A stretch of DNA of 37,368 bases from a virus (IMGVR_UViG_2537561825_000012), one strand, 5' to 3'; shown: positions 747 through 37,368, counted from the stretch's first letter. Notes: generated from the letters alone by a model not told the origin. A program made the numbers and translations.

Positions 747-824
747 TGATGCGCCGCGCGATAAATGCACTCTATCTTGTGCGATAAATGGCATCCACGC
801 GGCGTTTCATTATTTGAAAAAGAA
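747..824. mobile_element. Prophage terminus (Mu right-end-like) with repeated putative transposase-binding motifs
   Basis: Starts 5'-TG at 747-748. CGCGATAAATGCAC (757-770) and GCGATAAATGGCAT (781-794) are direct repeats 24 bp apart; CGTTTCAT at 803-810. Resembles the Mu R-end sequence as remembered. Confidence 0.5.
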
Positions 825-1397
825 TTACATTTCAGGTTGCGTTATGACAGTCCCAACAGGGTGATAGCGGTAGATCGTTGACAGTCCAATATCATAGATA
901 ATTGCCAGCCGCTTTCTGTCATACCCTTTCTGGAGCAATCTTGCGATCTGCTCATGCTGCTCCTTCGTCAGTTTCGGGCGACGTCCTCCAACTCTTCCTT
1001 GTGCTCGCGCAGCAGCCAGTCCAGCCAGCGTGCGCTCAACTATCAGTTCACGCTCCATTTCTGCCAGTGCACCCATCATATGAAAAAAGAACCTTCCCAT
1101 CGGAGTGCTGGTATCGATTGAATCCGTCAGACTGCGAAAATTGACACCTTTTGCGCGTAGCTCTTCTGTGAGAGCAATGAGGTGTTTCATTCTTCTACCC
1201 AACCGATCCAGCTTCCAGACCACCAATGTATCCCCTCTTTTAAGGCACTTTAAAGCGCGTTTCAGGCCTGGTCGTTCCGACTTGGTTCCGCTCATTTTGT
1301 CCTCAAAAATCTGTTCACATCCTGCGCACATTAATGCATTGCGTTGCAAATCTGTGTTTTGGTCATTTGTTGACACACGTATGTAGCCAATCAGCAT
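825..1397 (-). CDS. gin: Serine DNA invertase, Gin/Pin/Cin/Hin family
   Basis: N-terminus MLIGYIRVSTNDQNTDLQRNAL from ATG at 1397-1395 with AAGGGAG RBS; ~190 aa. The ORF-track N-terminal extension to 1526 is rejected. Confidence 0.9.
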   Translation of the reverse strand: MLIGYIRVSTNDQNTDLQRNALMCAGCEQIFEDKMSGTKSERPGLKRALKCLKRGDTLVVWKLDRLGRRMKHLIALTEELRAKGVNFRSLTDSIDTSTPMGRFFFHMMGALAEMERELIVERTLAGLAAARAQGRVGGRRPKLTKEQHEQIARLLQKGYDRKRLAIIYDIGLSTIYRYHPVGTVITQPEM

Positions 1398-1451
1398 TAA
1401 AAATACTCCCTTTTGAGTGGTTAAAGTACTGAGATAATGTGGGGAGGATTT

Positions 1452-1477
1452 GAGAGATAAACGTTGGTTTGGGGGAA
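1452..1477. other. gix-like 26-bp recombination site C (inverted relative to sites A and B)
   Basis: GAGAGATAAACGTTGGTTTGGGGGAA; its reverse complement TTCCCCCAAACCAACGTTTATCTCTC aligns with sites A and B; sits about 55 bp upstream of the invertase start. Confidence 0.55.
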
Positions 1478-1930
1478 GGCTCTGCATTGCCTGTTGGTGT
1501 ACCGGTTCCATGGCCCACCGCCACACCGCCAGCAGGCTGGTTACAGTGCAACGGAGCTACGTTCACCAAAGAACAATATCCTGTTCTGGCCAGAGTCTAC
1601 CCGACCCTCCGTCTTCCCGATTTGCGCGGTGAGTTTATCCGTGGATGGGACGGTGGTCGCAAGGTTGATACCGGGCGTGCGCTACTTTCATTTCAGGAAG
1701 GGACTATCGTATCCGGTTTTGATGATAATGATACCGGAGATATCAGTTCGCTCGGCTCTACACAATACGGATTTGGTGACGCTTTAACCTCTAATCAACT
1801 GGGGGTCTTAAATGGCAAAAAGTGGATATTTGATGCATCCTCTAAAGGTGCACAAAGATATGACTGGTGGGCTTATGTATCAGCTCGCCCCCGCAATATC
1901 GCATTTAACTATATCGTGAGGGCGGCGTGA
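1469..1930 (+). CDS. Silent alternative tail-fibre C-terminal cassette (Sv3), inverted relative to the expressed fibre gene
   Basis: Shares the conserved LGEGSALPVGVPVPWPTATPPAGW...RGEFIRGWD.GRKVDTGR block and C-terminal RPRNIAFNYIVRAA with the other two cassettes; no promoter or constant part on this strand. Confidence 0.7.
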   Translation: MGEGSALPVGVPVPWPTATPPAGWLQCNGATFTKEQYPVLARVYPTLRLPDLRGEFIRGWDGGRKVDTGRALLSFQEGTIVSGFDDNDTGDISSLGSTQYGFGDALTSNQLGVLNGKKWIFDASSKGAQRYDWWAYVSARPRNIAFNYIVRAA

Positions 1931-1936
1931 TACCGT

Positions 1937-2551
1937 TCAGCCGGCAAGCGCCAGTGGCGCTTCCGGCCAGCTGATTTCAGGTGCCTTGCTGATATCCAGT
2001 GCGTTCAGCTCGTCGATATAATCCAGCACGGCGTTCAGTTTTGCCGTTTCTTCTGGTTTCAGACTGCGACCAGCACGCAGTTTGAGGTTGATAAGATCGA
2101 CGGACGCCATCGCCTGTTTCACCCGTTGCTGGCGTTGCTGTCTGGCAACCTCCAGTTCTGCGGCTCGCTGCCGTTCAGTATCGGTTACCCACGCCTCACC
2201 GTTCCAGGTATCCCATGGCGTGGCTGGCTGTTTTGTGGTGGTGTCCGCCGGGTAATCACCCGGTTGGGTAATCAGAACGGGGTTACCGTTCTCCGTGCTG
2301 TATACCGTCTCGCCGCGGTGATCAGGCACATGCTCCCACCCGTTCAGCGTGGCAGTCCGGCAAACCACGTAACCCGAAATTGCTTCCGGCGGTGCATCGG
2401 CGCACGAATGTGCCGGAGTACCCACCCCAAGGGCGAGATACTCCACAGAGGATGAGGTGTATTCCCGGGTTTCCTCGTCATAGTGATATACAGTGATATC
2501 GCCCGCTACAGTGGCGATACCGTTTTCATCCAGAACTGCAGTGTTACTCAT
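1937..2551 (-). CDS. Tail fibre assembly protein (Tfa; Mu U / P2 gpG-like)
   Basis: 204 aa, position immediately after a fibre cassette; start overlaps the Sv2 stop (TAATG) with a GAGGG RBS. Confidence 0.75.
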   Translation of the reverse strand: MSNTAVLDENGIATVAGDITVYHYDEETREYTSSSVEYLALGVGTPAHSCADAPPEAISGYVVCRTATLNGWEHVPDHRGETVYSTENGNPVLITQPGDYPADTTTKQPATPWDTWNGEAWVTDTERQRAAELEVARQQRQQRVKQAMASVDLINLKLRAGRSLKPEETAKLNAVLDYIDELNALDISKAPEISWPEAPLALAG

Positions 2552-3033
2552 TAAACTGCCCTCACAATGTAATTAAGTGCAATGCTACGGGGTCTGACAG
2601 TGATACCCTTCGCATACCCGCTTCTGATAGAGGTCAGAATAGTAGCCTGCATACCATTGTCTGACATTGCCACGACAGGATCGCTGAATGTTGTCCCGTC
2701 CGGCATTTTAAAGCTGCCCTCACGAAGGTCTGTAATGGAATCTTCATTGTTGAATCCCATGCCGACTATCCCCGAGGTTCCCGTAGTGTCCTGGTTATAA
2801 TAATCCAGCATTGCTGTTCTTAACAGCGTTGCCCCTTGTGCGGACAGCAACTTACGTCCTGTATCAACTTTGCGCCCGTCGTCCCATCCACGGATAAACT
2901 CACCGCGTAAATCGGGAAGACGGAGGGTCGGGTAGACTCTGGCCAGAACAGGATATTGTTCTTTTGTAAAGGCGCGCCCGTCGCACTTTAACCAGCCTGC
3001 TGGCGGTGTGGCGGTGGGCCACGGAACAGGCAC
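2551..3033 (-). CDS. Silent alternative tail-fibre C-terminal cassette (Sv2), same orientation as the expressed gene but out of frame with it
   Basis: Begins inside the conserved repeat block; frame differs from the upstream fibre ORF (whose stop lies at 3074-3076), so it is not read-through product. Confidence 0.65.
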   Translation of the reverse strand: MPVPWPTATPPAGWLKCDGRAFTKEQYPVLARVYPTLRLPDLRGEFIRGWDDGRKVDTGRKLLSAQGATLLRTAMLDYYNQDTTGTSGIVGMGFNNEDSITDLREGSFKMPDGTTFSDPVVAMSDNGMQATILTSIRSGYAKGITVRPRSIALNYIVRAV

Positions 3034-3054
3034 ACCAACGGGTAGCGCCGAGCC

Positions 3055-3080
3055 TTCTCCTAAACCAACGTTTCTATGCC
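3055..3080. other. gix-like recombination site B (direct relative to site A)
   Basis: TTCTCCTAAACCAACGTTTCTATGCC at the upstream edge of the second copy of the ~190-bp conserved block. Confidence 0.5.
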
Positions 3081-4327
3081 GCCCTTACGATGTAATTAAA
3101 CGCAATGTTACGGGGACGAATGGTCACATAATTAACCCCATCGCCTCGCGAAGGACCTGCAAATGAAAAACGGGAGAATCCAGGTTGGTTGTCAAGGATT
3201 TGGTCATAGTTATTGATTGAATGACCAGACCCAATGTCAAAATTACCTGCGTAATGAGAAAAACTTGTACCATCCTGCCGTGAAAGCAGATCGCGCCCTG
3301 TATCCACTTTTCGCCCGTCGTCCCATCCACGGATAAACTCACCGCGCAAATCGGGAAGACGGAGGGTCGGGTAGACTCTGGCCAGAACAGGATATTGTTC
3401 TTTTGTAAAGGCGCGCCCGTCGCACTTTAACCAGCCTGCTGGCGGTGTGGCAGTGGGCCACGGAACAGGTACACCAACGGGCAGCGCCGAGCCTTCCCCC
3501 AAACCAAGGTAATTGAGGACATCTTTTATACTGCCCTTAGCGATAATAGCGCGACCAATAGCTGTAAGGGTTGCCAGCTCTGCGCGGTCTGCTCCGGTAA
3601 AATAAGGCAACCGATCTGCTGCAGTGGCAAGTCCTGCCAGAGCAGTGAGCGTGGCATCTGCCGGTTGTTTTCCGTTTGCCAGATCGTATGCAGCCTTGAC
3701 CGCTTTCGGTGTGGCGGCCAGTATTTCAGACGTGCTGTTGATGGCACTGCTCAATTGTACGGTGCCTTTTGCCGTCAGCGAGGCAGCAGGCACTCCCGTT
3801 ATCTGACTCCACGGGTGAGTGTGGCTGACGGGCGCCTTGCCGGCTGCAAGGTCGTATGCAGCCTTGACCGCCTTCGGCGTGGCAGCCTCAGTTTCTGATT
3901 GACTGTCCGTGGCGCTGCTCAGTTGTACGGTGCCTTTTGCCGTCAGCGAGGCAGCAGGCACTCCCGTTATCTGACTCCACGGGTGAGTATGGCTGACGGG
4001 GGCCTTGCCGGCAGCCAGGTCATATGCAGCCTTGACGGCCTTTGGTGTGGCGGCCAGCGTTTCAGAGGTGCTGTTGGTGGCACTGCTCAGTTGGGTGAAC
4101 CCCTTAGCTGTCAGTGTCGCGTCCGGGTGGTTACGGGAACGTACGTGTTCAGCCAGTGACTGTGCGGCTTCCTCCGTTTTTTTCTTCAGCCATTTCGTCC
4201 TGTTTGCCAGTTGCCGGGGGGCTCGATTTGATATCCCGTCTGCACCACCCAGAACCGGATCTGATGTCTCCAGTTGATAGATATTTTCTTCCCACTTTTC
4301 TGTTTCATTCAGGTTTCCCATAATCAA
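3074..4327 (-). CDS. Tail fibre protein (constant part Sc fused to cassette Sv1 in the present orientation)
   Basis: 417 aa; three tandem 56-aa repeats (TAKG..QLSSA.....AATPKAVKAAYDLA.GK); C-terminus carries the conserved cassette block. Confidence 0.85.
   Translation of the reverse strand: MIMGNLNETEKWEENIYQLETSDPVLGGADGISNRAPRQLANRTKWLKKKTEEAAQSLAEHVRSRNHPDATLTAKGFTQLSSATNSTSETLAATPKAVKAAYDLAAGKAPVSHTHPWSQITGVPAASLTAKGTVQLSSATDSQSETEAATPKAVKAAYDLAAGKAPVSHTHPWSQITGVPAASLTAKGTVQLSSAINSTSEILAATPKAVKAAYDLANGKQPADATLTALAGLATAADRLPYFTGADRAELATLTAIGRAIIAKGSIKDVLNYLGLGEGSALPVGVPVPWPTATPPAGWLKCDGRAFTKEQYPVLARVYPTLRLPDLRGEFIRGWDDGRKVDTGRDLLSRQDGTSFSHYAGNFDIGSGHSINNYDQILDNQPGFSRFSFAGPSRGDGVNYVTIRPRNIAFNYIVRAA
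3494..3519. other. gix-like recombination site A at the Sc/Sv junction
   Basis: TTCCCCCAAACCAAGGTAATTGAGGA; homology between cassettes begins immediately downstream (transcript sense) of this site. Confidence 0.55.
3640..4111. repeat. Tandem 168-bp coding repeat, about 2.8 copies, inside the tail fibre gene
   Basis: GTCGTATGCAGCCTTGACCGCC-type segments recur at 3683, 3851 and 4019 (period 168 bp = 56 aa). Confidence 0.8.
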
Positions 4328-6336: not shown

Positions 6337-6390
6337 GGGGGCAGTATTGCCCCCGTGCGGGAACGCTGATATTAAAGGCGTTTAAAAAGC

Positions 6391-6987
6391 TCAGTGGGAG
6401 TGGTGGCTGGAGTTTTCGCCATCAGACAACATACTGCCCGTGGCATGGGCATTCCCTTTAATCTCGATATTGCCATGGATGGTCGCGGTAACACCTTCAC
6501 CACCAGAACCCGCCATGCCTCCTTCGTAAATCAGCTTACCCCTGACACGCAGATCTCCGGTAAGTTCGGTTTCCGGTGCGTCAATCGTGGCTTTCTGTGT
6601 TTTCAATACCACATCAGCACCACACTCAATGACAATATGCTCAATGCCGCCCCGGATGGTCAGAGTGTGCGTCTTCCGGTTGTAGCTGTACTCTGCACCA
6701 TCAGCAAACCGGGTTCCCCGGATATTTTTGTCACTGAACGGTGGTTTATCGACGTCTGAATACACCGCGCCCAGAATAACACCATCCTCGCCGTTGGCAT
6801 CGAGCAGCACCTCAACCTGCTCCCCCACGTCAGGGAGCCAGTAATCTTTGTTATCCTGGGTATTGCGCTGCAGCACGTTAAGCCAGTTTGTGCGCAGGTT
6901 ATCGCATTCAGGCAGACGAACGCGGGCCTGAACCCTGTCGGCATCAACGGCACTGACCGTACCGACCTGACGAGTGACACCAGTCAT
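6391..6987 (-). CDS. Baseplate spike/assembly protein V-like (Mu gp45-like)
   Basis: 198 aa; position after the gpD-like gene. Confidence 0.7.
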   Translation of the reverse strand: MTGVTRQVGTVSAVDADRVQARVRLPECDNLRTNWLNVLQRNTQDNKDYWLPDVGEQVEVLLDANGEDGVILGAVYSDVDKPPFSDKNIRGTRFADGAEYSYNRKTHTLTIRGGIEHIVIECGADVVLKTQKATIDAPETELTGDLRVRGKLIYEGGMAGSGGEGVTATIHGNIEIKGNAHATGSMLSDGENSSHHSH

Positions 6988-8138
6988 TTTTTCTTCTCCT
7001 TAATCACCGTCGATGTACTGCCATCCGGGTGATAAACCGTGAGTTTCTGAGTTTTTTGTTTTTTCCCTCTTGTGACTGGCCCCCGTGCCACTTCCAGCTC
7101 TGTGGTGTAGCCGCTGTTACGGTCAAACGCATGGCGGGCAGTGGTTATGAGCCATGGCCCGGATAACTGCCCAAAACCCACCAGTTCAATTTTGTTGCCT
7201 GCTGTCAGTTGAGGTGTTCCCGTCAGCGTCAGGGAGCCGTTCTGCTGGTATTCGTTATGTCTGGCCAGTGCTGAATCCGCTTTAATCCGGGCACTGTCCG
7301 GGTCGCTGACGCGGCTGTTAACTTTAAGTGAGTCAGCGCTGGTAACCTTACCACCTTTGAGCTTTTTGTCGCTTTCACGGGTACCACCATCAGCTTCGTA
7401 GACGATCAGTTTTTTACTGCTGCTTTTCTGGTGTTTTACCTTTGCAGATTTATAGACCCGGTTGATGGTGTCACGCAGGGAAAAGCGGGCCACATCCTGC
7501 GGTTTTAACTGCCTGACCGGCTCCTGACTGCGCAGTGTGGCCAGATGAGAAAAAATCAGCTGGTCACTGACCACTTTCACTGCATAACCATACTCGCTGG
7601 CCAGCCGGCGCAGAAAACCCACGTCGGTTTCAGCATACTGGGTCACCCGGTCGATTCTGATGGACTCAATGCTGCCCACCAGTTTCAGTCGGTGCTTTCT
7701 GGCAATCCGCCCCGCAACAGCTGCCAGCGTGGTGTTCTCAAAACCACGACTGGTTTTAGTCCGCAGGGCACTGTTAACCGAGGTGGCCACCCCACGGATA
7801 GAAACAACGGAAGCGGGCGAACTCACTTCGATCTCGTCTATAGAGAACGTACCGCAGGACAGCAGCTTCTCGCCCTGATAGCCCATTTTCAGCGTCAGCG
7901 TGTCACCCTTGCCCGGATACCATTTATCCAGCCAGCGGCCATCGGTGTCGTCCAGCTCCACCTCAATGGTATCGGACTCATTTTTGATGTTATCGCTCCA
8001 GGTCACACGGGTGACATAAGGCGCGATATCAGAGGTGATGTTTTTCTGCAGATACCACAAAGTGAACACCGGTGTCAGCACATCGCTGACGCCGGTTAAC
8101 GCTGATGTGACTTGCGCAGTGCTGTTTATCTCAGCCAT
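6984..8138 (-). CDS. Baseplate hub / late control D-like protein (P2 gpD, Mu gp44 P-like)
   Basis: 384 aa, size and position match gpD-type proteins. Confidence 0.7.
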   Translation of the reverse strand: MAEINSTAQVTSALTGVSDVLTPVFTLWYLQKNITSDIAPYVTRVTWSDNIKNESDTIEVELDDTDGRWLDKWYPGKGDTLTLKMGYQGEKLLSCGTFSIDEIEVSSPASVVSIRGVATSVNSALRTKTSRGFENTTLAAVAGRIARKHRLKLVGSIESIRIDRVTQYAETDVGFLRRLASEYGYAVKVVSDQLIFSHLATLRSQEPVRQLKPQDVARFSLRDTINRVYKSAKVKHQKSSSKKLIVYEADGGTRESDKKLKGGKVTSADSLKVNSRVSDPDSARIKADSALARHNEYQQNGSLTLTGTPQLTAGNKIELVGFGQLSGPWLITTARHAFDRNSGYTTELEVARGPVTRGKKQKTQKLTVYHPDGSTSTVIKEKKK

Positions 8139-8341
8139 GGGGCAATATCCTCTTCTGTACGGGCTTCTTCAGCCTCAATCACCGGGATCAGTAACAACAG
8201 CCCGGAGGGCAGCACCGGCGTGATGGCCACGTGCGGATTGGCGGCAATAATCCGGGGATAGCCCAGCGGGTCACCGTAGTACTGCCATGCCAGCGAATCC
8301 CAGCGCTCTCCGTCACGGGTAACATGTTCAAGAAACATCAC
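8126..8341 (-). CDS. Tail protein X-like (small LysM-like)
   Basis: 71 aa with W..YYG...........ANP pattern recalled from P2 gpX. Confidence 0.55.
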   Translation of the reverse strand: MMFLEHVTRDGERWDSLAWQYYGDPLGYPRIIAANPHVAITPVLPSGLLLLIPVIEAEEARTEEDIAPWLR

Positions 8342-12499: not shown

Positions 12500-12502
12500 A
12501 TG

Positions 12503-27435: not shown

Positions 27436-28200
27436 ATGAAAATGCAGACATTACCCATCGTGCCGTGGATTGGTGGCAAACGCCGCCTTGCAAAACACAT
27501 TCTGCCGCTGTTTCCGGCGCATGAATGTTATGTGGAGCCGTTTTGTGGGGCAGCAGCGCTCTATTTTCTTAAGACACCCGGCAAGATCGAAGTCATCAAT
27601 GATATCAACGGTGAACTGGTGAATCTGTACCGGGTGGTAAAGCATCACCTGGAAGAATTTGTCCGCCAGTTCAAATGGGCGCTGGTCAGCCGTCAGATCT
27701 ACAAATGGCTGCAGATCACCCCGGAAGAAACACTGACGGATATCCAGCGTGCGGCACGGTTCTACTACCTTCAGAAGCAGGCGTTTGGCGGCAAGGTGGC
27801 AGAGCACAGCTTCGGTACCTCCACCACATCCCCGCCACGCTTCAACCTGCTACGTATTGAAGAAGAACTGTCAGCGGCACACCTGCGGCTTTCCAGAACA
27901 GTCATAGAACACATGGACTGGCAACAGTGCATTGAGCGTTATGATCGTCCGCACACGCTGTTCTACTGCGACCCACCGTACCTGGGTACGGAAGGCTATG
28001 GTGTGGATTTTCCTGAAGGGAACTACTCGCGGCTGGCAGAGCTGGCCCGGTGCATCAGAGGAAAAATGATAATTTCGGTGAACGACATCCCGCAGATGCG
28101 CGAGGTGTTCACTGGACTGAACATACAGACAGTGAATATCAACTACAGTCTGGCGGGTAAACCCACGCCGCGCCGTGAACTGCTAATCTGCAACTTCTGA
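27436..28200 (+). CDS. dam: DNA adenine methyltransferase, Dam family
   Basis: WIGGK, EPFCGAAA and CDPPY motifs; ATG at 27436 (the ORF-track start at 27346 is upstream). Confidence 0.8.
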   Translation: MKMQTLPIVPWIGGKRRLAKHILPLFPAHECYVEPFCGAAALYFLKTPGKIEVINDINGELVNLYRVVKHHLEEFVRQFKWALVSRQIYKWLQITPEETLTDIQRAARFYYLQKQAFGGKVAEHSFGTSTTSPPRFNLLRIEEELSAAHLRLSRTVIEHMDWQQCIERYDRPHTLFYCDPPYLGTEGYGVDFPEGNYSRLAELARCIRGKMIISVNDIPQMREVFTGLNIQTVNINYSLAGKPTPRRELLICNF

Positions 28201-28209
28201 AACAAAACC

Positions 28210-28232
28210 GGAAAGCACAATGCTTTCCGGTA
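28210..28232 (-). terminator. Intrinsic terminator between the convergent methyltransferase and repressor genes
   Basis: CCGGAAAGCA-caa-TGCTTTCCGG 10-bp stem; UUUUGUUU follows on the minus strand, so it terminates repressor-strand transcripts and possibly both directions. Confidence 0.55.
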
Positions 28233-28316
28233 AACCAAACAACTTCCACTATGTCACTGGCGATGTTTTCTGAAAGCATCCAGATCAACCACCTGTCCTT
28301 TGTGTCCGGGTCAGTA

Positions 28317-28673
28317 TCAGCCTGCGATTTTTCCTGGTTTTGGCTGAGTATAGAATCGCCCAATCTCAAGAAATGAGCGTTGTTGGTCTGGTGTCATGTC
28401 GTCAAAAGTATCTATTAGTTTTTGTTTTTCTGGGGAAATTTGATTCTGGTTTCTAGTCATACCATCTGTGCTCATTCCAGTGAGCAACCAATTTACATCA
28501 ACATTAAACTCTTGATGCATCTTTAACAGAAACTCCCCTCCAGGCATCGCCTTTCCATTTTCAATCTGACTGATACCACCATTAGAAATACCTAAACGAG
28601 CTGCAAATTCTCTCTGGTTCAACCCTGCTTTCTTCCTCACAGAAATAACGCGCTCTCCTATATCTTTGCTCAT
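28317..28673 (-). CDS. Prophage repressor, HTH XRE (CI/Cro-type)
   Basis: N-terminal HTH LNQREFAARLGISNGGISQIENG; divergent from the early operon; operator palindrome in the intergenic region. Confidence 0.8.
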   Translation of the reverse strand: MSKDIGERVISVRKKAGLNQREFAARLGISNGGISQIENGKAMPGGEFLLKMHQEFNVDVNWLLTGMSTDGMTRNQNQISPEKQKLIDTFDDMTPDQQRSFLEIGRFYTQPKPGKIAG

Positions 28674-28696
28674 AAAAGTGAATCTCTATCTTGATA

Positions 28697-28714
28697 TGCT
28701 CATAATTATGAGCA
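28697..28714. promoter_or_regulatory. Operator: perfect 18-bp palindrome between -35 and -10 of the early promoter
   Basis: TGCTCATAATTATGAGCA, flanked by TTGATA (28691-28696) and AATAAT (28714-28719); a half-site copy TGCTCATAA lies at 28667-28675 over the repressor start codon. Confidence 0.6.
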
Positions 28715-28766
28715 ATAATCTAACACATATAAGGCAAACATCATTGCATCAACAAAGGAGACAACG

Positions 28767-28955
28767 ATGACTGCAGAACAAGTCAAAGCTCTCTTCCGCC
28801 AGCGCGGGATCACTTTCACCCGCTGGGCAGAAGAAAACGGCTACAACCGCAATGAGGTATACCGCGTTCTCAACGGGCAGACCAAAGCCCGTTACGGTAA
28901 ATCCCATGAAATCGCCGTGAAGTTGGGACTGAAATCAACAGCTCAGGCGGCCTAA
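28767..28955 (+). CDS. Small DNA-binding protein at the Ner/Cro position
   Basis: 62 aa; AAGGAG RBS; first gene of the early operon, divergent from the repressor. Confidence 0.6.
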   Translation: MTAEQVKALFRQRGITFTRWAEENGYNRNEVYRVLNGQTKARYGKSHEIAVKLGLKSTAQAA

Positions 28956-29001
28956 ATATTTTGAGTCTTTGTAAAAGGTTATCACATATCGCAAAAGAGG
29001 T

Positions 29002-29316
29002 ATGCAGATGAGTAAGACGAATGTTTCAAGCTCCGGCAGTCGCATCCTCCGGGTACTCAAAGCGCTGCGCGGTCATGCCCTGAACGGTATTTCTAACGGT
29101 GAACTGGCGACAGCACTGCACGAGTCACCGGCAAACATCAACCGGGCACTCAACACCCTCATTGAAGAAGGGCTGGCTCTGAAACTGGAGAACGGACGTT
29201 TTGCACCGGGCATCCAGTTACTGCAGATCGCCATGGCCCACAGTAACGAGATGGCACGTGCACAGGATCGTATTAACGAAATTAACCAACGTGTCATTTC
29301 AGGTAGTCGTTTGTAA
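29002..29316 (+). CDS. Winged-helix transcriptional regulator-like protein
   Basis: 104 aa with an IclR-like N-terminal HTH pattern (GISNGELATALHESPANINRALNTLIEEG); likely start at the second ATG, 29008. Confidence 0.5.
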   Translation: MQMSKTNVSSSGSRILRVLKALRGHALNGISNGELATALHESPANINRALNTLIEEGLALKLENGRFAPGIQLLQIAMAHSNEMARAQDRINEINQRVISGSRL

Positions 29317-29326
29317 GGAGTAATCA

Positions 29327-30247
29327 ATGGGACGTACCAAATCACCGATTAACACTGAACTGAACGCCGATGTACCGCTGTCGGATGATCTCAACGTCAG
29401 CCTGAATGCCATGACACAGCATCGCATGGAGATCATGCAGCAGTTTGGTGATGGACTGCCTTATGAACGTGAACGCATCGTTCACGAAGCACGTTTTTAT
29501 ATGGCGCAGAGTGCTGAATCTATGTTGGAAGCGGGTAAGCGGCTGATCATCTTAAAAGAAAATGAACCGCATGGTGATTTCACAAATATTCTGGAAAACG
29601 ACCTCGGATTAGCACCACAGGTAGCTCGTCGCATGATGCAGGCCAGCGTGAAATTTCTCGGCAATGGAGATGAACAGCCAAAACGCTCAGCGCTGAGCGT
29701 TTTGGGAAAAACCAAGTTATATGAACTGATGGTTCTGGATGACGAAGAACTCGACGCATTAGCTGATGGTGGAACCGTCGCCGGTGCAACGCTTGATGAT
29801 ATTGATCGCATGACCAGCCGCGAACTGAAGGCCGCCCTGCGTGAAGCGCGCGAAACCAACGCAGCTCAGCAACAGGTGCTTGCCGGAAAGGACGAAAAAA
29901 TCAACGAACTGGCCACAAAACTGGAGAAGAAATCGCGCCTGCAACCTCCGCCGCCAGACGAAGAACTGAAAAAATTGCGGGCGGAAGTGACGGCATTAGC
30001 GGTTGAGGCCGAATCGGCTATCGCCGTCCGGCTGTCCAGTGTTTTTGAGACCCTGTGTGAATACTGCACCAAAAACATGATCGATACCCCCAGAGATTTC
30101 ATGGCCGGTCTGGTCTGCCAGATTGAACGCAGTGTTCATGCATTACGTGAGACGTTTGACCTTGAGGCCGCTCCATCGGGTAACGATGCCCCCGCCTGGC
30201 TGACCGAACCGGAACCTGAAATCAACCGACCGGAGGATATGCAGTAA
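29327..30247 (+). CDS. Hypothetical protein (acidic, coiled-coil rich)
   Basis: 306 aa ORF with AAGGAG RBS. Confidence 0.6.
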   Translation: MGRTKSPINTELNADVPLSDDLNVSLNAMTQHRMEIMQQFGDGLPYERERIVHEARFYMAQSAESMLEAGKRLIILKENEPHGDFTNILENDLGLAPQVARRMMQASVKFLGNGDEQPKRSALSVLGKTKLYELMVLDDEELDALADGGTVAGATLDDIDRMTSRELKAALREARETNAAQQQVLAGKDEKINELATKLEKKSRLQPPPPDEELKKLRAEVTALAVEAESAIAVRLSSVFETLCEYCTKNMIDTPRDFMAGLVCQIERSVHALRETFDLEAAPSGNDAPAWLTEPEPEINRPEDMQ

Positions 30248-30564
30248 TGAATACGAATAACACACAAAATACCCTGATGGACAGCCCGGAGGCACTGGGG
30301 CACGCACTGTGTAATCTGCTGCCGGAGATGGTGCAGGGTTTCCGCGTGGTGACCCCTTCCGGTGAAATCTGCGTACCCGCACAGGAGACGCACCCGTTTG
30401 TACTGACGATGGAGGTGATGCTGATGCAGCAGATAAGACGTCTGCAGAATCAGTCAGCATTACGCCCGGTAGTTGCACCGCAACCGGTAAATACCGTGGT
30501 GAAAACCTGCGATGGCGAAACACTGTGCGACCTCGCCAGAAAAATTGCCGCCAGAATCGGATAA
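30247..30564 (+). CDS. Hypothetical protein
   Basis: 105 aa, start overlaps upstream stop (TAATG), GGAGGA RBS. Confidence 0.55.
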   Translation: MNTNNTQNTLMDSPEALGHALCNLLPEMVQGFRVVTPSGEICVPAQETHPFVLTMEVMLMQQIRRLQNQSALRPVVAPQPVNTVVKTCDGETLCDLARKIAARIG

Positions 30565-30579
30565 CAGGGAAGACAAGCT

Positions 30580-32349
30580 ATGACCCCGGCACTGACTGAA
30601 AAACTGGTTGAAACAGCCCGCGCGGCACGTGACGCGGGGCATGGTAAACGCGGTGCAATATACGACGCTGCCTGTGCTGAACTTGGCATGTCCCGCGCCA
30701 CTCTGCTGCGCAGGCTGAAGGAGGTATCTGTGACTGATAAACGCAAAAAACGCGCCGATGCCGGGCGCAGCGCCCTGACCCGCGACGAAGCCGCGCTGAT
30801 ATCTGCCACACTGCGTGAGGCCACCCGCAAGAACGGTAAGCGTCTCTATTCCATCGCAGATGCAGTGGAAACCCTGCGGGCTAACGGCTTTATCACCGCA
30901 GGCAGAACAGATGAAACCACCAGTGAGTTTTTCCCGTTGTCTGAAGATGCCATCAGCCGTGCTCTGCGTAACTATGGCCTGCACCCGGAACAACTGGATG
31001 CCCCTGCACCACATACCGAAGTGGCCAGTCTGCATCCCAATCATGTCTGGCAGATTGACGCCTCACTCTGCACGCTTTACTACCTGAGCAATGGACATAA
31101 AGGGCTGCAGGTGATGGACAGCGCGAAGTTCTACAAGAACAAGCCCGCTAACCTTGCCCGTATCGCCAGTGACCGCGTGTGGAGTTACGAGATTACCGAC
31201 CATGCCAGCGGCTGGATTTACGTTGAGTATGTGACGGGCGCGGAATCAGGTGAGAACCTGTGTTCTGTGCTTATCAACGCCATGCAGGAGCGTGGCGGCG
31301 CAGACGTGCTGCACGGCGTGCCGAAAATACTCTATCTCGACCCCGGCTCGGCAAACACCGCGGGTATGACGAAAAACATGTGCCGCTCACTGGGCATCGA
31401 CCTGATAGCGCACAAGCCGCATAACGCCCGCGCCACCGGACAGGTGGAAAAGGCGCGTGACATTATCGAACGCAAGCTGGAGCCGGGTCTGAAGTTCCGG
31501 CCGGTTCACAGTCTGGAAGAACTCAACGCGCTGGCCGCGAAATGGCGCAGCCACTTTAACGCCACGGCTGTTCACAGCCGCCACGGTAAAACCCGCACGG
31601 ATATCTGGCTGAAGATTACTGCTGAGCAGCTGAAAAAAGCGCCTTCCGTTGAGGTATGTCGTGAACTGGCTGTGGCGGCACCAGAACTCCGCAAAGTCAC
31701 GCCAAAACTTCGTGTCTCGTTCCGGGGCACTGAATTTGACGTATCAACGGTACCGGGCGTACTGGTTGGTGAAAAACTGATGATTACCCGTAACCCATGG
31801 CGCAGCGATGTGGCACAGGTGGTTCTGACCGGTGAGGACGGCCACGAGACGTTCTTCCTGGTCGAAGAGGTCAGAAAGAACGAGTTTGGCTTTGCTGAAG
31901 GCGCGGCGGTATTTGGCGAAAGTTACAAAGCCCTGCCGGAAACCCCGGCACAGATGGCGGCAAAAGAAACCGAAGCGCTGGTTACCGGTACAGACAACGC
32001 CGCAGATGCAGCCGCCGCACGCAAGGCGAAGGCGCTGCCGTTCGGCGGGCGGCTTGACCCGTATAAACATATCGACGACACCACACTTCCGGCCTATATG
32101 CCGAAGCGTGGTCAGGCCTCTGACGTACGCGGGCCGCGCACTGAACAACGTCCCATGACTCATGTGGAGGCCGCGAAAGCCCTGCGCGATAAGTTCAGCG
32201 CCGACGGCCTTACCTGGACGCCGGAACATTACCGCCAGTTAACGGCACAGTACCCGGACGGCGTACCGGAAGCCGCACTGGATGAAGTCATGGCCACGCT
32301 GACCACACCGGCCCGCAGCAGTGTTATCAGCATTGTTAACGGCAACTGA
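30580..32349 (+). CDS. DDE transposase (Mu A-like)
   Basis: 589 aa; integrase-type catalytic core pattern (HVWQIDAS..., YLDPGSANT...); directly followed by the AAA+ B-like gene. Confidence 0.8.
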   Translation: MTPALTEKLVETARAARDAGHGKRGAIYDAACAELGMSRATLLRRLKEVSVTDKRKKRADAGRSALTRDEAALISATLREATRKNGKRLYSIADAVETLRANGFITAGRTDETTSEFFPLSEDAISRALRNYGLHPEQLDAPAPHTEVASLHPNHVWQIDASLCTLYYLSNGHKGLQVMDSAKFYKNKPANLARIASDRVWSYEITDHASGWIYVEYVTGAESGENLCSVLINAMQERGGADVLHGVPKILYLDPGSANTAGMTKNMCRSLGIDLIAHKPHNARATGQVEKARDIIERKLEPGLKFRPVHSLEELNALAAKWRSHFNATAVHSRHGKTRTDIWLKITAEQLKKAPSVEVCRELAVAAPELRKVTPKLRVSFRGTEFDVSTVPGVLVGEKLMITRNPWRSDVAQVVLTGEDGHETFFLVEEVRKNEFGFAEGAAVFGESYKALPETPAQMAAKETEALVTGTDNAADAAAARKAKALPFGGRLDPYKHIDDTTLPAYMPKRGQASDVRGPRTEQRPMTHVEAAKALRDKFSADGLTWTPEHYRQLTAQYPDGVPEAALDEVMATLTTPARSSVISIVNGN

Positions 32350-32359
32350 GGAGGGAAAC

Positions 32360-33526
32360 ATGCTGGTACTGAAGCAGCAACTGAAAGAGGCCCGTATTCC
32401 ACAGGCGGTGGTGGCGAGAGCTGTCGATGTTTCTGAGGCCACGCTGGCCCAGATTGTGAATCATAACGCGTGGCCCCGCACCAGCCCCGGAGAAGTGCGC
32501 CGGCGTCTTGCGTCCTGGCTGGAAAGTCAGGGGATTGATACAACGAAGAGTTTTGATGCTGTACAGGGCGCGGCCACGCCCCGTACAGCGGGTACCACAG
32601 ATAAAACGAGCCTCAGTGAGGAAGAGAATATGTTACTCAAAAAACAGGTGTTATTTCCAGCAACCAAAAAAGCGTTTGGTCTTTTCCGTGACCCGTTCGC
32701 CGACGAAGCCATGCAGGGTTCTGATGATGTGTTCACCACCCCGGATATTCGCTACGTGCGTGAGGCGTTGTACCAGACAGCCCGTCATGGTGGGTTTATG
32801 GCCGTCATCGGTGAGTCCGGTGCGGGTAAATCCACGCTGCGCCGCGACCTGACTGAACGTATCACCCGCGAGAATGCGCCGGTAATTGTTATCGAGCCAT
32901 ACATCATCGCTATGGAAGACAACGATGTGAAAGGGAAAACCCTGAAGGCAGCAGCGATTGCCGAAGCCATTATCAGTACCATCGCACCACTGGAAAGCAT
33001 CAGACGCAGTCAGGACGCCCGCTTTCGCCAGTTGCATCGCGTCCTGAAAGACAGCAGCCAGGCGGGGTTCAGCCACGTTCTGGTGATTGAGGAGGCCCAC
33101 AGTCTGCCCATTCCGACACTGAAACACCTCAAACGCTTTTTTGAGCTGGAGTCCGGTTTCAAAAAACTGCTGTCCATCGTGCTGATTGGCCAGCCGGAAC
33201 TGGCGACAAAACTGTCTGAACGCAATATGGAAGTCCGTGAAGTCGTTCAGCGCTGTGAGGTGGTCGAACTTCTGCCTCTGGACAATAACCTTGAAGAGTT
33301 TCTGACGTTCAAACTGCAACGGGCCGGTAAACAACTGACGGACATTATGGACGCCAGCGCAGTGGATGCCATACGTGCCCGCCTGAGCAATCCGGGAAGT
33401 CATCGTAAAAATATGGTCAGCCTGCTGTATCCGCTGGCCGTCAGTAACCTGGTAATAGCCGCCATGAATCTGGCCGCTGAAATCGGGGTTCCACAGGTCA
33501 ACGCTGACGTTGTCAAAGGGGTTTAA
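32360..33526 (+). CDS. AAA+ ATPase transposition protein (Mu B-like)
   Basis: ATG at 32360 after GAGGAGGG; N-terminal HTH, Walker A GESGAGKST, Walker B VLVIEEAH. Confidence 0.8.
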   Translation: MLVLKQQLKEARIPQAVVARAVDVSEATLAQIVNHNAWPRTSPGEVRRRLASWLESQGIDTTKSFDAVQGAATPRTAGTTDKTSLSEEENMLLKKQVLFPATKKAFGLFRDPFADEAMQGSDDVFTTPDIRYVREALYQTARHGGFMAVIGESGAGKSTLRRDLTERITRENAPVIVIEPYIIAMEDNDVKGKTLKAAAIAEAIISTIAPLESIRRSQDARFRQLHRVLKDSSQAGFSHVLVIEEAHSLPIPTLKHLKRFFELESGFKKLLSIVLIGQPELATKLSERNMEVREVVQRCEVVELLPLDNNLEEFLTFKLQRAGKQLTDIMDASAVDAIRARLSNPGSHRKNMVSLLYPLAVSNLVIAAMNLAAEIGVPQVNADVVKGV

Positions 33527-33528
33527 TA

Positions 33529-33798
33529 ATGAAATCCACCACAGGTATCAACCAGCAAATCAGCAAAGTGCAGTCAGCCATTATGGCGCTTAAGGCGACG
33601 AACACGGATGTACAAAGCATCACCATCAGGGGTAACAAACCTGTCATCCGCGTTTCCCGGAGTGCGCATTGCATGCGCATGCTTGAGCAGGGAAAGGCCT
33701 GTTATCTGTATACCGGTCATGACCACAGGGGACATTTCCGTCAGGGCGTTTTCGAACTGCACGGCTGTCGCGTCGTGTGGCCGGAATCTTTGTGGTAA
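33529..33798 (+). CDS. Hypothetical protein (Mu kil position)
   Basis: 89 aa ORF with RBS, between B-like and Gam-like genes. Confidence 0.5.
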   Translation: MKSTTGINQQISKVQSAIMALKATNTDVQSITIRGNKPVIRVSRSAHCMRMLEQGKACYLYTGHDHRGHFRQGVFELHGCRVVWPESLW

Positions 33799-33825
33799 TC
33801 AGCACAACAGGAGGAGTCATAAAAT

Positions 33826-34356
33826 ATGGCAAAAAGTACAAAAGGGGCAAAACGTATCAAAGCCGCAGCAGCACTCTGGGTGCCGGGGACACGCGAAGAG
33901 GTCATTGAGGGAATCAGACTGCTTGGTGACGCGCAACGTGAACTGGTCAGGGCTGAAACAGAAATGAATGACACCATTGGCGACATCACTGCACGTTATG
34001 CCCCGCTCACCGAGAGCCTGAAAAAACGCATGGCCGAACTGCAGTCCGGTATCCAGACATGGTGTGAGGCGCACCGTGATGAACTGACCGGCAACGGGAA
34101 GGTGAAGTTCGCTAACCTCACCCCCGGCGAGGTGCAGTGGCGAAACCGTCCGCCGTCAGTCAGCATTCGCGGGGCGGATAATGTCATTGAACTGCTGAGA
34201 CGTCTGGGGCTTGAGCGCTTTATTCGTGTAAAAGAGGAAATAAATAAAGACGCTATCCTGAATGAAAAAGAGGCCGTGAAAAATATTCCCGGTATTTCCA
34301 TTAAAAGCGACATTGAGGATTTTTCAATAATTCCTTTTGAGCAGGATGTGCAGTAA
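33826..34356 (+). CDS. gam: Host-nuclease inhibitor Gam-like protein
   Basis: 176 aa; AGGAGGAG RBS; size and position match Mu Gam. Confidence 0.7.
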   Translation: MAKSTKGAKRIKAAAALWVPGTREEVIEGIRLLGDAQRELVRAETEMNDTIGDITARYAPLTESLKKRMAELQSGIQTWCEAHRDELTGNGKVKFANLTPGEVQWRNRPPSVSIRGADNVIELLRRLGLERFIRVKEEINKDAILNEKEAVKNIPGISIKSDIEDFSIIPFEQDVQ

Positions 34357-34453
34357 ACACACCACGTTAATTATTTAATAAAAACATTTTCTTTTTTATT
34401 CCGACGTCAGCGCCGCGGGCTTCTGCACGCCGGAAACAGAGGAGAATTAAATC

Positions 34454-34648
34454 ATGATATTTAAATGTATTCAGTGCGAGAGGGATATAACAGCCCTGCG
34501 TTTTCACAGCGCCATCGCCGTGATGTCCGGTAAATACCACATCCCTGCGGTACGCGTCACCCTGGTCTGCCCGTACTGCAGCCAGCATTTTTCGGCAGAC
34601 GTGCCCGTCATGGAATTCTCCCGCCCTGACAGGGAGGACTCGCAATGA
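34454..34648 (+). CDS. Small zinc-ribbon protein (CxxC...CxxC)
   Basis: 64 aa with CIQC and CPYC pairs; GGAG RBS. Confidence 0.55.
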   Translation: MIFKCIQCERDITALRFHSAIAVMSGKYHIPAVRVTLVCPYCSQHFSADVPVMEFSRPDREDSQ

Positions 34649-34917
34649 TTACCCCACAGGAAGCACGACAGCGCACCCGAACCCTTGTTGAACACTATGT
34701 CAACGAGTGTGAATGCCGCGACCTCACCGATGTGAAGCACGTCCTGACGGCGCTAATCAGCATGACCGCTCAAGCCATTGTGGCGACCAACGGAAAGGCG
34801 GCTGCCCTGCAGGTACTGGTGAACACACTAACCCACACGGCAGCGCATGAGGTGCCGTACCGGATGGAAACCACTGCAGAAGGCGGCCTGCACATCACCG
34901 TCAGCCGGAAGCACTGA
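34645..34917 (+). CDS. Hypothetical protein
   Basis: 90 aa, ATGA overlap with upstream gene, AGGGAGGA RBS. Confidence 0.55.
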   Translation: MITPQEARQRTRTLVEHYVNECECRDLTDVKHVLTALISMTAQAIVATNGKAAALQVLVNTLTHTAAHEVPYRMETTAEGGLHITVSRKH

Positions 34918-34926
34918 GGGCGCGGC

Positions 34927-35223
34927 ATGACACGGAACACCATACTCACCCGCACCGCCCTCTACCGTCTGGCCCTGCAGCGTTTCGGGCCGGACGCACA
35001 GGCCCTGAAACTGACAGAAGAGGCCGCTGAACTGGCGGCCAGTGCTGCCCGCAATCTGAACGGACAGGGCAGCGAAAGCGACCTCGCGGCAGAGCTGGCA
35101 GACGTGGAAATCATGACAGAGCAATTGCGCCTTCAGGGGATGGACCGGCTGATTGACTTCCACAAACAGAAAAAACTGGAACGTCTGGCTGCACGACTGG
35201 GCGTGATTTACACGAACGAGTAA
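34927..35223 (+). CDS. MazG-like nucleotide pyrophosphohydrolase domain protein
   Basis: 98 aa all-helical; EEAAELAAS and ELADVEIM acidic motifs characteristic of MazG-type enzymes. Confidence 0.5.
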   Translation: MTRNTILTRTALYRLALQRFGPDAQALKLTEEAAELAASAARNLNGQGSESDLAAELADVEIMTEQLRLQGMDRLIDFHKQKKLERLAARLGVIYTNE

Positions 35224-35237
35224 CCGGGAGGCATTCA

Positions 35238-35453
35238 ATGGCTGACATACTCAGGGAAATCACCGCATGGATACTGATTCTTACTGGCCTGGCGACATGC
35301 CTCAGTGCGGGGGCAGCCCTGGCTGCCCTGCTGATGCACATAACAACACAGTGGTTATGGGAAAAGCTTAAAGCAGCATACAGCCTGAAAGAGCTGTCCG
35401 ACGCTGTCCGGGCATGGAAACGGCAGAAAAATACCGGAGATACAGAACAATGA
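35238..35453 (+). CDS. Small membrane protein
   Basis: 71 aa with one hydrophobic segment; GGGAGG RBS. Confidence 0.5.
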   Translation: MADILREITAWILILTGLATCLSAGAALAALLMHITTQWLWEKLKAAYSLKELSDAVRAWKRQKNTGDTEQ

Positions 35454-36133
35454 CAGACCAGAATAAACACATTGAGAAACTGAAAAAGTTGCTGGCGCTG
35501 GCCGCATCCGGCAACCCGCACGAGGCCGCTCTGGCACTGTGCCGAGCCCGTAAACTGATGGATGTTCACGGCATCACACATTCCGACATTGCTATGAGTG
35601 ATATTGATGAAACCATCAGTCACTACTGGCCGACAGGCAGTCTCCGTCCACCGCGCTACATGCTGGGCCTGATGAACATCATCCGCGAGGTATTTGGTGT
35701 TAACTCCATCATTCACCCCGGCACGCATCCGTCTGTGGGGTTCTACGGCAACCGGGAACGTGCGGCACTGGCTGCATACACCTGGGAAGTGCTGGCCCGT
35801 CAGCTGAAAAAGGCGCGTCAGCAGTATATCAGTGCACAGAACAAAAGAATAAAAACCGCCACCCGCACCAGCCGTGGAGACCAGTTTGCCGAAGGCTGGG
35901 TGCTGGCCGTTATCAGTGAAATACAGTCCTTTGCCCTGACCGATGATGAGCGTGAACTGATGCAGCAGTGGCTGGAACATAAATACCCGCAGACGCAAAC
36001 CACCAGGGCGCGTAAACCGGGAAGAAGCCGCAATGGCGACGCCTCGCGCTATGCGGGGTTTCGTGAAGGGCAGAACGTCAGACTGCACCGCCCGGTCAGT
36101 GGGCAGGAACAACAGAAACTGGAGGCCAGATGA
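35450..36133 (+). CDS. Hypothetical early protein with KLLALAASGNPHEAALAL motif
   Basis: ATG at 35450 overlapping the upstream stop with GGAGA RBS; the ORF-track start at 35414 is less likely. Confidence 0.55.
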   Translation: MTDQNKHIEKLKKLLALAASGNPHEAALALCRARKLMDVHGITHSDIAMSDIDETISHYWPTGSLRPPRYMLGLMNIIREVFGVNSIIHPGTHPSVGFYGNRERAALAAYTWEVLARQLKKARQQYISAQNKRIKTATRTSRGDQFAEGWVLAVISEIQSFALTDDERELMQQWLEHKYPQTQTTRARKPGRSRNGDASRYAGFREGQNVRLHRPVSGQEQQKLEAR

Positions 36134-36360
36134 TTACGCTATCAGGTAAAAGCCGGAAATTAAAAGCCTGCCGAATATCTGCCAGATACCTTTTTGCCCG
36201 CGCCTTTTTTAAGAACGTCAGGCCGGGGATCACAATTGGTGTTATTGCCGGACGCGAACAGGTTGAAAAATACATGTCAGGTGCATGGTGGAATAACGAC
36301 CCTGTCATTGCTGCCCGTAATATTCATATCGAATGGGGAGGTATTCAGAATGACTACTGA
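36130..36360 (+). CDS. Hypothetical protein
   Basis: 76 aa, ATGA overlap with the upstream gene. Confidence 0.45.
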   Translation: MITLSGKSRKLKACRISARYLFARAFFKNVRPGITIGVIAGREQVEKYMSGAWWNNDPVIAARNIHIEWGGIQNDY

Positions 36361-36556
36361 AACCATTGTCTGTTTTCTTTTCTGGTATATGTACGCAGGA
36401 TCATGCAGCGCAAGACTTCATCGTTCCCTGGGCTATGGCAGGCACTACGACACCGCGCATTACATCCTGTACATGACCGCCGTCATGTTGTTCTGGCCAG
36501 TCCCCCTGCCAGCTGCAACCGACATTGTTGCCGACAGACTGAAAAAAAGGAGATGA
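36350..36556 (+). CDS. Small membrane protein
   Basis: 68 aa from ATG at 36350 with GGGGAGG RBS; hydrophobic segments. Confidence 0.45.
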   Translation: MTTETIVCFLFWYMYAGSCSARLHRSLGYGRHYDTAHYILYMTAVMLFWPVPLPAATDIVADRLKKRR

Positions 36557-36557
36557 T

Positions 36558-37007
36558 ATGCAGAAAAAACGCCTGATACAGCTTATCCATATTGCCCGTA
36601 ATGAACTGGGTATGGATGAAGACACCTACCGCCAGATGTTACAGGGGCTGACCGGTAAAGCCTCAACCAAAGGAATGGATACCACACAACTAAACTGCGT
36701 GCTGGAATCCATGAAAAAGAAAGGCTTTCGCGTTAAACCAGCCAGAAAAGCCAGCTCCGGTTTACCGCTGGATAACCATCCGCAGTCCAGGAAAATTCGT
36801 GCGCTATGGCTTGAAATGGCTGCTGCCGGCATTGTTCGTGACCGTTCAGAAAATGCATTAGCGAGGTGGATCAAGCGGGAAACGGGCATCAGCGCCCTGC
36901 GCTGGCTCAGTACTGAACAGGCAAGCAGTGTTATTGAGAAACTGAAGAAGTGGCAGCGCAGAGCTGCGGGAGTCAAACATGAGCGACCTGAATCAGTTTC
37001 GAAGTAA
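36558..37007 (+). CDS. gemA: GemA-like regulatory protein (Mu gp16 family)
   Basis: 149 aa; N-terminal KKRLIQLIHIARNELGMDEDTYR pattern; overlaps the Mor-like gene as in Mu. Confidence 0.7.
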   Translation: MQKKRLIQLIHIARNELGMDEDTYRQMLQGLTGKASTKGMDTTQLNCVLESMKKKGFRVKPARKASSGLPLDNHPQSRKIRALWLEMAAAGIVRDRSENALARWIKRETGISALRWLSTEQASSVIEKLKKWQRRAAGVKHERPESVSK

Positions 37008-37368
37008 GGGGCCGGAACTCCTGGTGGAACTGGCACAGCATACCTCTGAGACCGTTCGCGAGATTATTGATATTGAGCCCGAAGTTGCCGACCAGATTGG
37101 TCAGGCCGTCGCGAACCGAATGATGCAGGTCTGGGGCGGGCAAAACGTTTATTTCCCGATGGGCATGGTATGGAAGGTCAGTCAGCGCGACCGGGAAATC
37201 TTCAGGGAGTTTAACGGACGCAACCACCACGAACTGGCCCGCAAATTTGGTGTTTCGCTTCAGTGGGTCTACAGCGTGGTTAAGCGGGTAAGAAAAGAAG
37301 AACTGGATCGGATGCAGGGCAAGCTATTTGCTGATGAACCCGATGCAGATACGGAGAAAAAAGAGTAA
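36979..37368 (+). CDS. mor: Mor-family transcriptional activator
   Basis: 129 aa; conserved GGQNVYFP...FNGRN..ELARKFGVS...VY pattern of Mor/C activators; stop codon is the last triplet of the window. Confidence 0.75.
   Translation: MSDLNQFRSKGPELLVELAQHTSETVREIIDIEPEVADQIGQAVANRMMQVWGGQNVYFPMGMVWKVSQRDREIFREFNGRNHHELARKFGVSLQWVYSVVKRVRKEELDRMQGKLFADEPDADTEKKE

Follow-up and report, generated by a model that had tools for sequence, protein, structure and literature searches.

Back-to-back gene organization of a BcepMu-type Escherichia coli prophage and candidate Mor-dependent late promoters

BcepMu is a transposable phage whose genes lie in two opposed clusters, with lysogeny control at the interface (Lavigne et al. 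2009, PMC2771037). It combines a Tn552/IS1604-type transposase and a terminal CA with a P2-like tail cassette, its virion DNA carries random host sequence at either end, and it was described without a fibre inversion system (PMC2771037). Related prophages are known from Salmonella, Photorhabdus, and Chromobacterium (PMC3417384). In phage Mu, the early, middle, and late genes are transcribed rightward, except for c, at the left end, and one small open reading frame (ORF). The immunity and early region of phage B3 is reportedly inverted relative to that of Mu, as Braid et al. are said to have described in 2004. Here, we analyzed a viral DNA stretch of 37,368 nucleotides (IMGVR_UViG_2537561825_000012; the whole stretch is referred to as the window), in which positions 747 to 37,368 hold a transposable E. 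coli prophage with divergently transcribed early and late genes. A preliminary description, which used Mu as its reference, had left three explanations for this layout: a naturally divergent lineage, an in-place inversion of the early block, or two abutting elements.

Organization, boundaries, and relatives of the prophage

The back-to-back arrangement of early and late blocks is the normal, published layout of BcepMu-like phages and not a rearranged form of Mu. We consider it very probable that window positions 747 to 37368 represent a single transposable myovirus prophage of the BcepMu type, short of its last 162 bp, in which this layout is ancestral and functional and operates along the lines of the regulatory scheme proposed below. 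The ORF map agrees with the earlier reading of late genes running leftward to the Gin end (minus strand up to 25792) and an early operon running rightward (plus strand, 28767 to 37368). By blastp, 38 of the 56 window genes match BcepMu (NC_005882) in the same relative order and orientation. In blastn alignments to BcepMu and phiE255, all high-scoring segment pairs lie on the opposite strand without an internal switch, and the window is therefore the BcepMu map read backwards. The annotation of BcepMu itself places gp1 (Mor) at the genome end and genes 1 to 16 on the bottom strand; the top strand carries the gp17 repressor along with the lysis, head, and tail genes. The colinear matches, the opposite-strand alignments, and the published layout (PMC2771037) show that, of the three explanations, the naturally divergent lineage, toward which the preliminary description had leaned, is the correct one.

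The resemblance extends to gene content. The transposase is of the Tn552/IS1604 rve type and is paired with an ExeA-like ATPase instead of MuA and MuB; the two opposed clusters have lysogeny control at their interface, with Mor adjoining the genome end; and the lysis cassette is followed by Mu-like head genes and then by a P2-ordered tail cassette. The termini of BcepMu and of the E. coli element also share one design, in that both start with TGA(A/T)G, and G(C/A)GATAWWT then occurs twice at an interval of approximately 23 bp. In contrast to BcepMu, the E. coli phage carries Gin with an invertible fibre segment, a Mu-like Gam, a Dam methylase block, and a different repressor, and it lacks gp3 to gp7 of BcepMu (including HU-like gp4 and DUF3164 protein gp5), gp18 to gp20, and the acyltransferase gp53.

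The boundaries of the element were defined by comparison with other prophage copies. Window positions 1 to 746 are host DNA, and phage sequence runs from 747 onward, interrupting an amidohydrolase gene. In megablast comparisons with hundreds of E. coli genomes, position 747 is precisely where the similarity sets in. The left junctions of three other copies have the same start, TGATGCGCC, with unrelated host DNA alongside, and share the first bases TGATGCGCCGCGCGATAAATG at the Gin-proximal end, in agreement with the phage end proposed earlier. The direct repeats of GCGATAAATG near this end are putative transposase-binding repeats.

On the right, the window ends on the Mor stop codon, as had been noted, and the suggested search for the other end and a 5-bp target duplication was carried out on sister prophages. 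Strain EcPF7 has a full-length, 100% identical copy between otsB and araH, and variant copies lie within irp2 (Eco889) and between ydiV and selO (p11A). In these three, the Mor-proximal end reads ...TCAAGTCTAATCA at 162 bp past the Mor stop. It repeats the TGA(A/T)G...G(C/A)GATAWWT layout of the Gin-proximal end, again with two copies of the latter motif. Host genes follow directly; no phage genes, and hence no second late-gene set of the kind considered earlier, lie beyond Mor in EcPF7, Eco889, or p11A. The end was thus located, but the duplication is 6 bp and not 5 bp long. Direct repeats of this length (CCATTT, CTCAGG, and TTAGGA) surround the whole approximately 37-kb late-plus-early unit in all three full-length insertions, which are independent of one another. 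Rejoining the EcPF7 flanks with a single CCATTT gives a 100% match over 400 nt to other E. coli genomes, and this reconstructed empty site sets the EcPF7 copy at 37,120 bp plus the 6-bp duplication. Flanks differ in each of the six copies examined. The element thus combines TG...CA termini (TG at 747 in the window, CA from the sister copies) with many insertion sites and a target duplication. By this comparison, the window lacks the last 162 bp of an element estimated at 36,784 bp (~36.8 kb), and the expected target duplication of the window copy is GCCCGG at 741 to 746, instead of the 5 bp at 742 to 746 proposed at first.

These junctions bear directly on whether two elements abut here, namely, a defective tail/head prophage and a separate transposable element with the early genes. 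The divergence of the blocks and the variable accessory block between them, with its lower G+C content (0.45 to 0.51 at 27 to 29 kb), would fit such a composite. However, the 6-bp duplications and the exact empty site bracket both blocks together, and motif searches found no internal TG/CA end with GATAAATG repeats anywhere in the element. This includes the interval from 28200 to 28320, singled out previously as a possible phage end, where a terminator hairpin was found instead. The patterns GMGATAAATG and TGATNNGNNNNGMGATAAATG returned only the two copies at 747 to 790 and chance-level hits. Every function is present in a single copy, which the preliminary description had already taken as a sign of one phage, and the BcepMu record with both blocks is deposited as a complete phage genome, its virion DNA having host DNA at both ends (PMC2771037). 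Two abutting elements were rejected on the target-site evidence and deserve next to no credence.

A recent in-place inversion of the early block, in the window strain, of an originally Mu-colinear prophage would account for a c-to-mor block that is inverted relative to the Mu map and for the missing C gene after mor. Yet the orientation is the same in PhiKM, EcPF7, Eco889, p11A, KP12_2, BcepMu, phiE255, and JBD18. Moreover, all E. coli copies have a true transposon end with its putative binding repeats at 162 bp past Mor, and the early block is not bounded by inverted-repeat scars or end motifs. With the orientation constant in all relatives examined, a strain-level inversion was rejected as extremely improbable. 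Taken together, the 6-bp duplications and exact empty site around both blocks and the lack of an internal end exclude both the composite and a local inversion.

Like Mu, the phage is transposable, has TG...CA ends, and carries its repressor and early promoter in divergent orientation. Nucleotide similarity is approximately 2%, and nine proteins match those of Mu: Gin (76%), Gam (60%), TerL (49%), F (47%), GemA, Mor, portal, G, and a fibre fragment. Mu encodes MuA/MuB and com/mom and uses Mor and C as two successive activators; the window has an inverted early block, one activator, no com/mom, a Tn552-like transposase with its ATPase, 6-bp duplications, and a P2-like tail. A six-frame phmmer search detected a single Mor/C-family ORF and no second Mor/C gene, Com, Mom, MuA, MuB, Mu c, Ner, Kil, or Mu endolysin, in line with the reported absence of a C-type activator and com/mom. 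The Mu names given earlier to the repressor, Ner, A, and B did not hold: these proteins are positional analogues without detectable homology to Mu c, Ner, A, or B (phmmer E>0.5), and Pfam finds only rve and AAA_22 in the transposase and ATPase, with no Mu transposase domains. The defining features of Muvirus that were tested are all missing, from MuA/MuB to colinear transcription with c at the left end, Mor plus C, and com/mom. The target duplication in Mu is 5 bp, in contrast to 6 bp in all three insertions here. Mu gene names (A, B, Ner, and c) and Mu rules (a 5-bp duplication and a C activator) should not be forced on such elements.

This element is an ordinary, already catalogued E. coli prophage, and its divergent layout is known for BcepMu-like and B3-like phages; the predicted Mor boxes and the 6-bp duplication appear to be the only additions made here. 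Of 5,426 complete E. coli genomes, 640 (~12%) contain its early region. Escherichia phage PhiKM (PQ738613) is 99.5% identical to the element and has the same genes in the same order, with 98.7 to 99.6% nucleotide identity over the shared parts, while insertion site, fibre-segment orientation, and fibre length vary among PhiKM and the E. coli prophage copies. A literature search found no paper on PhiKM. The same divergent layout is present in Klebsiella KP12_2 (OM835952), with approximately 64% overall nucleotide similarity to the window, and in the Pseudomonas B3-like phage JBD18 (Beetrevirus), in which Mor and GemA lie at the end and the transposase cluster is opposed to the lysis and head genes. 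The B3-like transposase is 57% identical to that of the window; B3-like phages are siphoviruses with tails unrelated to that of the window phage.

Candidate late promoters and a model of late control

Inspection of the late-strand gaps upstream of the holin, head protease, and tail chaperone genes yielded the box pattern TYYTAANNNNNNTTAAWATC. A search with this pattern gave exactly one further perfect match, in the 54-bp gap upstream of gpW, again on the late strand (~0.002 exact matches expected by chance in the window). The consensus, TYYTAA-N6-TTAAWATC, has four exact matches, all intergenic and all on the late strand. At a fixed 19 nt after each of the four boxes, a weak -10-like hexamer is found, followed by CTG. 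No consensus sigma-70 promoter was called at the four box gaps, and terminator-like hairpins lie just upstream of two boxes.

The boxes recur in relatives; BcepMu and phiE255 have one at each of the four positions. For three of these positions, the distance from box to start codon is equal in KP12, p11A, BcepMu, and phiE255; at the protease position, the Burkholderia spacing differs. Box 4 is the same in BcepMu and phiE255, at the same 31 nt from the ATG. When the window is compared with KP12, the box and the -10 hexamer differ by 7% and 4%, respectively, whereas the spacer differs by 30% and the upstream sequence by 46%.

The box core, CTTAA-N6-TTAAA, consists of two 5-bp inverted repeats forming a 16-bp element, with its centre at approximately -42.5 to -43.5 if the hexamer is a -10 element. 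Mor at Pm and C at the four Mu late promoters bind two 5-bp inverted repeats in a 16-bp element that is centred at -43.5 and replaces the -35 element (PMC4390567, PMC2582627). The Mu late promoters, four in number and lacking a -35 element, with a Mor/C-family dimer at about -43.5, are thus similar in geometry to the predicted boxes of the window. The four boxes are candidate Mor-dependent late promoters with Mor/C-site geometry. The single family member encoded is equally similar to the solved structures of Mu Mor (PDB 1rr7) and Mu C (9l0x), at ~4e-9 each.

This suggests a two-tier cascade, with Mor firing four late operons, as the most economical model. During lysogeny, the internal Xre/CI-type repressor, transcribed leftward, would sit on a palindromic operator inside the early promoter. 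Derepression would yield one rightward early transcript of approximately 8.6 kb, encoding small DNA-binding regulators, the Tn552-like DDE transposase with its ExeA-like AAA+ partner (presumed functional analogues of MuA and MuB), Gam, and GemA, with the single Mor/C-family activator as the last early gene, adjoining the genome end. Mor would then bind the four 16-bp dyad boxes approximately 43 bp upstream of the starts, at opposite-strand sigma-70 promoters devoid of a -35 element, and directly turn on the lysis-terminase-portal, head, tail, and baseplate-fibre operons in a two-step cascade that omits the intermediate C activator of Mu. The transposase would act on the TG...CA ends, with two subterminal repeats each, to leave 6-bp target duplications, and the Mu-like Gin, at the genome end opposite Mor, would flip the 1.6-kb fibre segment.

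With the layout as described, the late genes might instead be switched on by a second regulator or by anti-termination, the boxes binding something else. The connection between Mor and the boxes is drawn from sequence, and no function is known for several of the small early and late ORFs. Against this, Mor/C-family proteins are known late or middle activators in Mu and one member of the family is encoded; the box architecture (a 5-6-5 dyad at about -43, without a -35 element) is of the Mor/C-site type, and the boxes are kept at four homologous positions across Enterobacteria and Burkholderia. We therefore regard this alternative as unlikely and retain the single prophage with direct control of the late operons by Mor.

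Several points weigh against the latter reading, either in its regulatory part or in its assignment to BcepMu. The right end lies outside the window, so that the target duplication of the window copy itself is not visible. The promoter starts, and hence the centring at -42.5 to -43.5, depend on the -10-like hexamer alone, and the box pattern was built from three of its four members. The box was not found in the first 20 kb of JBD18, nor at the Mu late promoters, which gave only AT-rich low-stringency noise; being missing from both, it is clade specific and does not represent Mor/C motifs in general. Among the small ORFs, there may be another late regulator that went unrecognised. Finally, intergenomic similarity to BcepMu and phiE255 is approximately 20% (30% aligned at 68% identity). 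A genus is delimited at approximately 70% nucleotide similarity over the genome, and the phage would thus fall outside Bcepmuvirus as strictly understood by the ICTV, although GenBank still files PhiKM there.

On balance, we lean slightly toward a reading in which the boxes (TYYTAA-N6-TTAAWATC, 19 nt, nATACT) form the Mor regulon of the BcepMu/enterobacterial clade and the E. coli lineage is an unclassified genus-level mosaic of a BcepMu backbone with Mu-type Gin and Gam. If the boxes are indeed the Mor regulon, the last early gene fires the opposite-strand late operons directly, and the Mor-to-C relay of Mu is dispensed with. The predicted boxes thereby offer a simple, testable model of late control for a very common E. 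coli prophage.

Lysogeny region, tail fibres, and further genomic features

The features of the window are compiled in Table 1.

Table 1. Features annotated in the window and its candidate regulatory elements
Feature	Position	Strand	Evidence and remarks
ISAs1-family transposase, C-terminal fragment	1-225	+	NCBIfam; host DNA
yafV-type amidohydrolase gene, 3' two-thirds	267-746	-	NCBIfam PRK10438, profile positions 96-255 of 256 only
Gin-proximal phage end	747-824	+	TG start; two direct copies of GCGATAAATG at 758-767 and 781-790
Gin-type serine DNA invertase	825-1397	-	Pfam Resolvase (1.2e-50) and HTH_7; 76% identity to Mu Gin
Invertible tail-fibre segment	1459-3073		231-nt inverted repeats, 1459-1689 and 2843-3073
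Alternative distal fibre ORFs in invertible segment	1469-1930; 2551-3033	+; -	
Tail fibre assembly ORF	1937-2551	-	RefSeq name in EcPF7
Late gene block	3074-25792	-	blastp to BcepMu gp21-gp52, 31-76% identity, strictly colinear
Late block, tail part			Tail fibre; P2-like baseplate/tail I, J, W, V, D, X, U, tape measure, E/E', tube, sheath
Late block, head part (Mu-like)			Capsid, protease, G, F, portal, TerL, TerS
Late block, lysis cassette	holin 25442-25792	-	Rz-like, SLT endolysin, holin; Pfam holin and SLT
Candidate late-promoter box 4	6368-6387	-	TTTTAAACGCCTTTAATATC, 19 nt, then AATACT; upstream of gpW, J, I, and fibre genes
Candidate late-promoter box 3	12458-12477	-	TCTTAATCTCCTTTAATATC, 19 nt, then CATACT; upstream of tail chaperone and tape-measure genes; after hairpin 12496-12481
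Candidate late-promoter box 2	18376-18395	-	TTCTAAAGCAGATTAAAATC, 19 nt, then CAAACT; upstream of protease/scaffold and capsid genes; after terminator-like hairpins
Candidate late-promoter box 1	25843-25862	-	TCTTAACGCGCTTTAAAATC, 19 nt, then GATGCT; upstream of holin, head, and terminase genes
Accessory block	25923-28200	mostly +	No BcepMu counterparts; PHROGs of unknown function
Accessory genes orf242, orf134, orf71	orf134 26627-27031	+, -, +	
D12-class N6-adenine methyltransferase (Dam)	27346/27436-28200	+	Pfam MethyltransfD12 8.7e-29; PADLOC MTase_II 9e-112
Bidirectional terminator hairpin	28207-28231		Between converging Dam and repressor genes
Lysogeny repressor, 118 aa, Xre/CI-type helix-turn-helix (HTH)	28317-28673	-	Pfam HTH_3 4.6e-15, Phage_CI_repr; PHROG transcriptional repressor families
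Candidate early promoter Pe	28691-28719	+	TTGATA-17-AATAAT
Early operon	28767-37368	+	Pfam, PHROGs; blastp to BcepMu gp16, 12, 10, 9, 8, 2, and 1 in order
Early operon start		+	62-aa HTH (gp16-like), winged HTH regulator (gp12-like), DUF3102 (gp10-like), orf105
Tn552-like DDE transposase	30580-32349	+	Pfam rve; 68% identity to BcepMu gp09
ExeA-like AAA ATPase	32360-33526	+	Pfam AAA_22; 59% identity to BcepMu gp08
Gam	33826-34356	+	60% identity to Mu Gam
Eight small ORFs after Gam		+	One a DUF7168 protein
GemA	36558-37007	+	
Mor	36979-37368	+	PF08765, 1.3e-43, 147.8 bits vs cut-off 24.9; stop is the last window triplet

The repressor was previously placed in the rightward group. It is encoded on the minus strand, like the late genes, and points away from the early operon. 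Its internal position was described correctly, but its distance from the phage end was not: the gene lies approximately 27.6 to 27.9 kb from 747, and the 28.5 kb given is a window coordinate. It shows only marginal similarity to BcepMu gp17 (E=0.001). A perfect 16-bp palindrome, GCTCATAATTATGAGC, occupies 28698 to 28713 in the spacer of Pe and is likely its operator. Three copies of the half-site GCTCATAA lie around the start of the repressor gene and the early promoter (28668 to 28713), and two of them form this palindrome; the half-sites are likely operators. At the opposite end of the early operon, no terminator was found after Mor in the 162-bp right end.

A swap region is found between the lysis cassette and the early promoter (window 25923 to 28673, Eco889 10008 to 12638, and p11A 29109 to 31739). 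The window, EcPF7, and PhiKM carry orf242, orf134, orf71, and Dam together with the 118-aa repressor, whereas in Eco889 and p11A the region encodes a 153-aa HTH protein and contains two hypothetical genes and a gene annotated as "ABC transporter ATPase." This difference implies different immunity types and cargo. A PADLOC defence search of the accessory block returned the methyltransferase only, the matches of orf242 being insignificant.

At the Gin-proximal end, the 1,615-bp fibre segment is 100% identical in EcPF7 but lies in the flipped orientation, indicating Gin-mediated switching caught between genomes. Its ORFs have no NCBIfam family match. A third copy of the repeat, approximately 230 to 244 nt long, lies within the constant fibre gene (3267 to 3510) and hints at more than one possible recombination product. 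Elsewhere in the tail genes, an overlapping pair of small ORFs upstream of the tape-measure gene (11988 to 12405, minus strand) resembles the programmed-frameshift chaperones E/E' of P2; the EcPF7 equivalent has an internal stop and is marked as a pseudogene in RefSeq.

The element actively disrupts host genes, as seen for the yafV-type amidohydrolase in the window strain and for the yersiniabactin synthetase gene irp2 in Eco889 (885 to 1529 and from 39096). A degraded copy is present in E. coli N169 (6831 to 8306), in which the transposase gene is truncated and joins directly onto a portal gene that is likewise truncated. In this copy, the repressor, lysis, and terminase genes are deleted, and the tail end is cut by an rhs element.

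Two database records of relatives have irregularities of their own. OM835952 is filed under Vequintavirinae despite being a BcepMu-like transposable prophage and is probably a co-assembled, misclassified prophage contig. The PhiKM record is partial and permuted, and its positions 20200 to 20740 join the Mor-proximal end to non-phage DNA of an Fe2+ ABC transporter permease; the deposited partial genome therefore includes host sequence.

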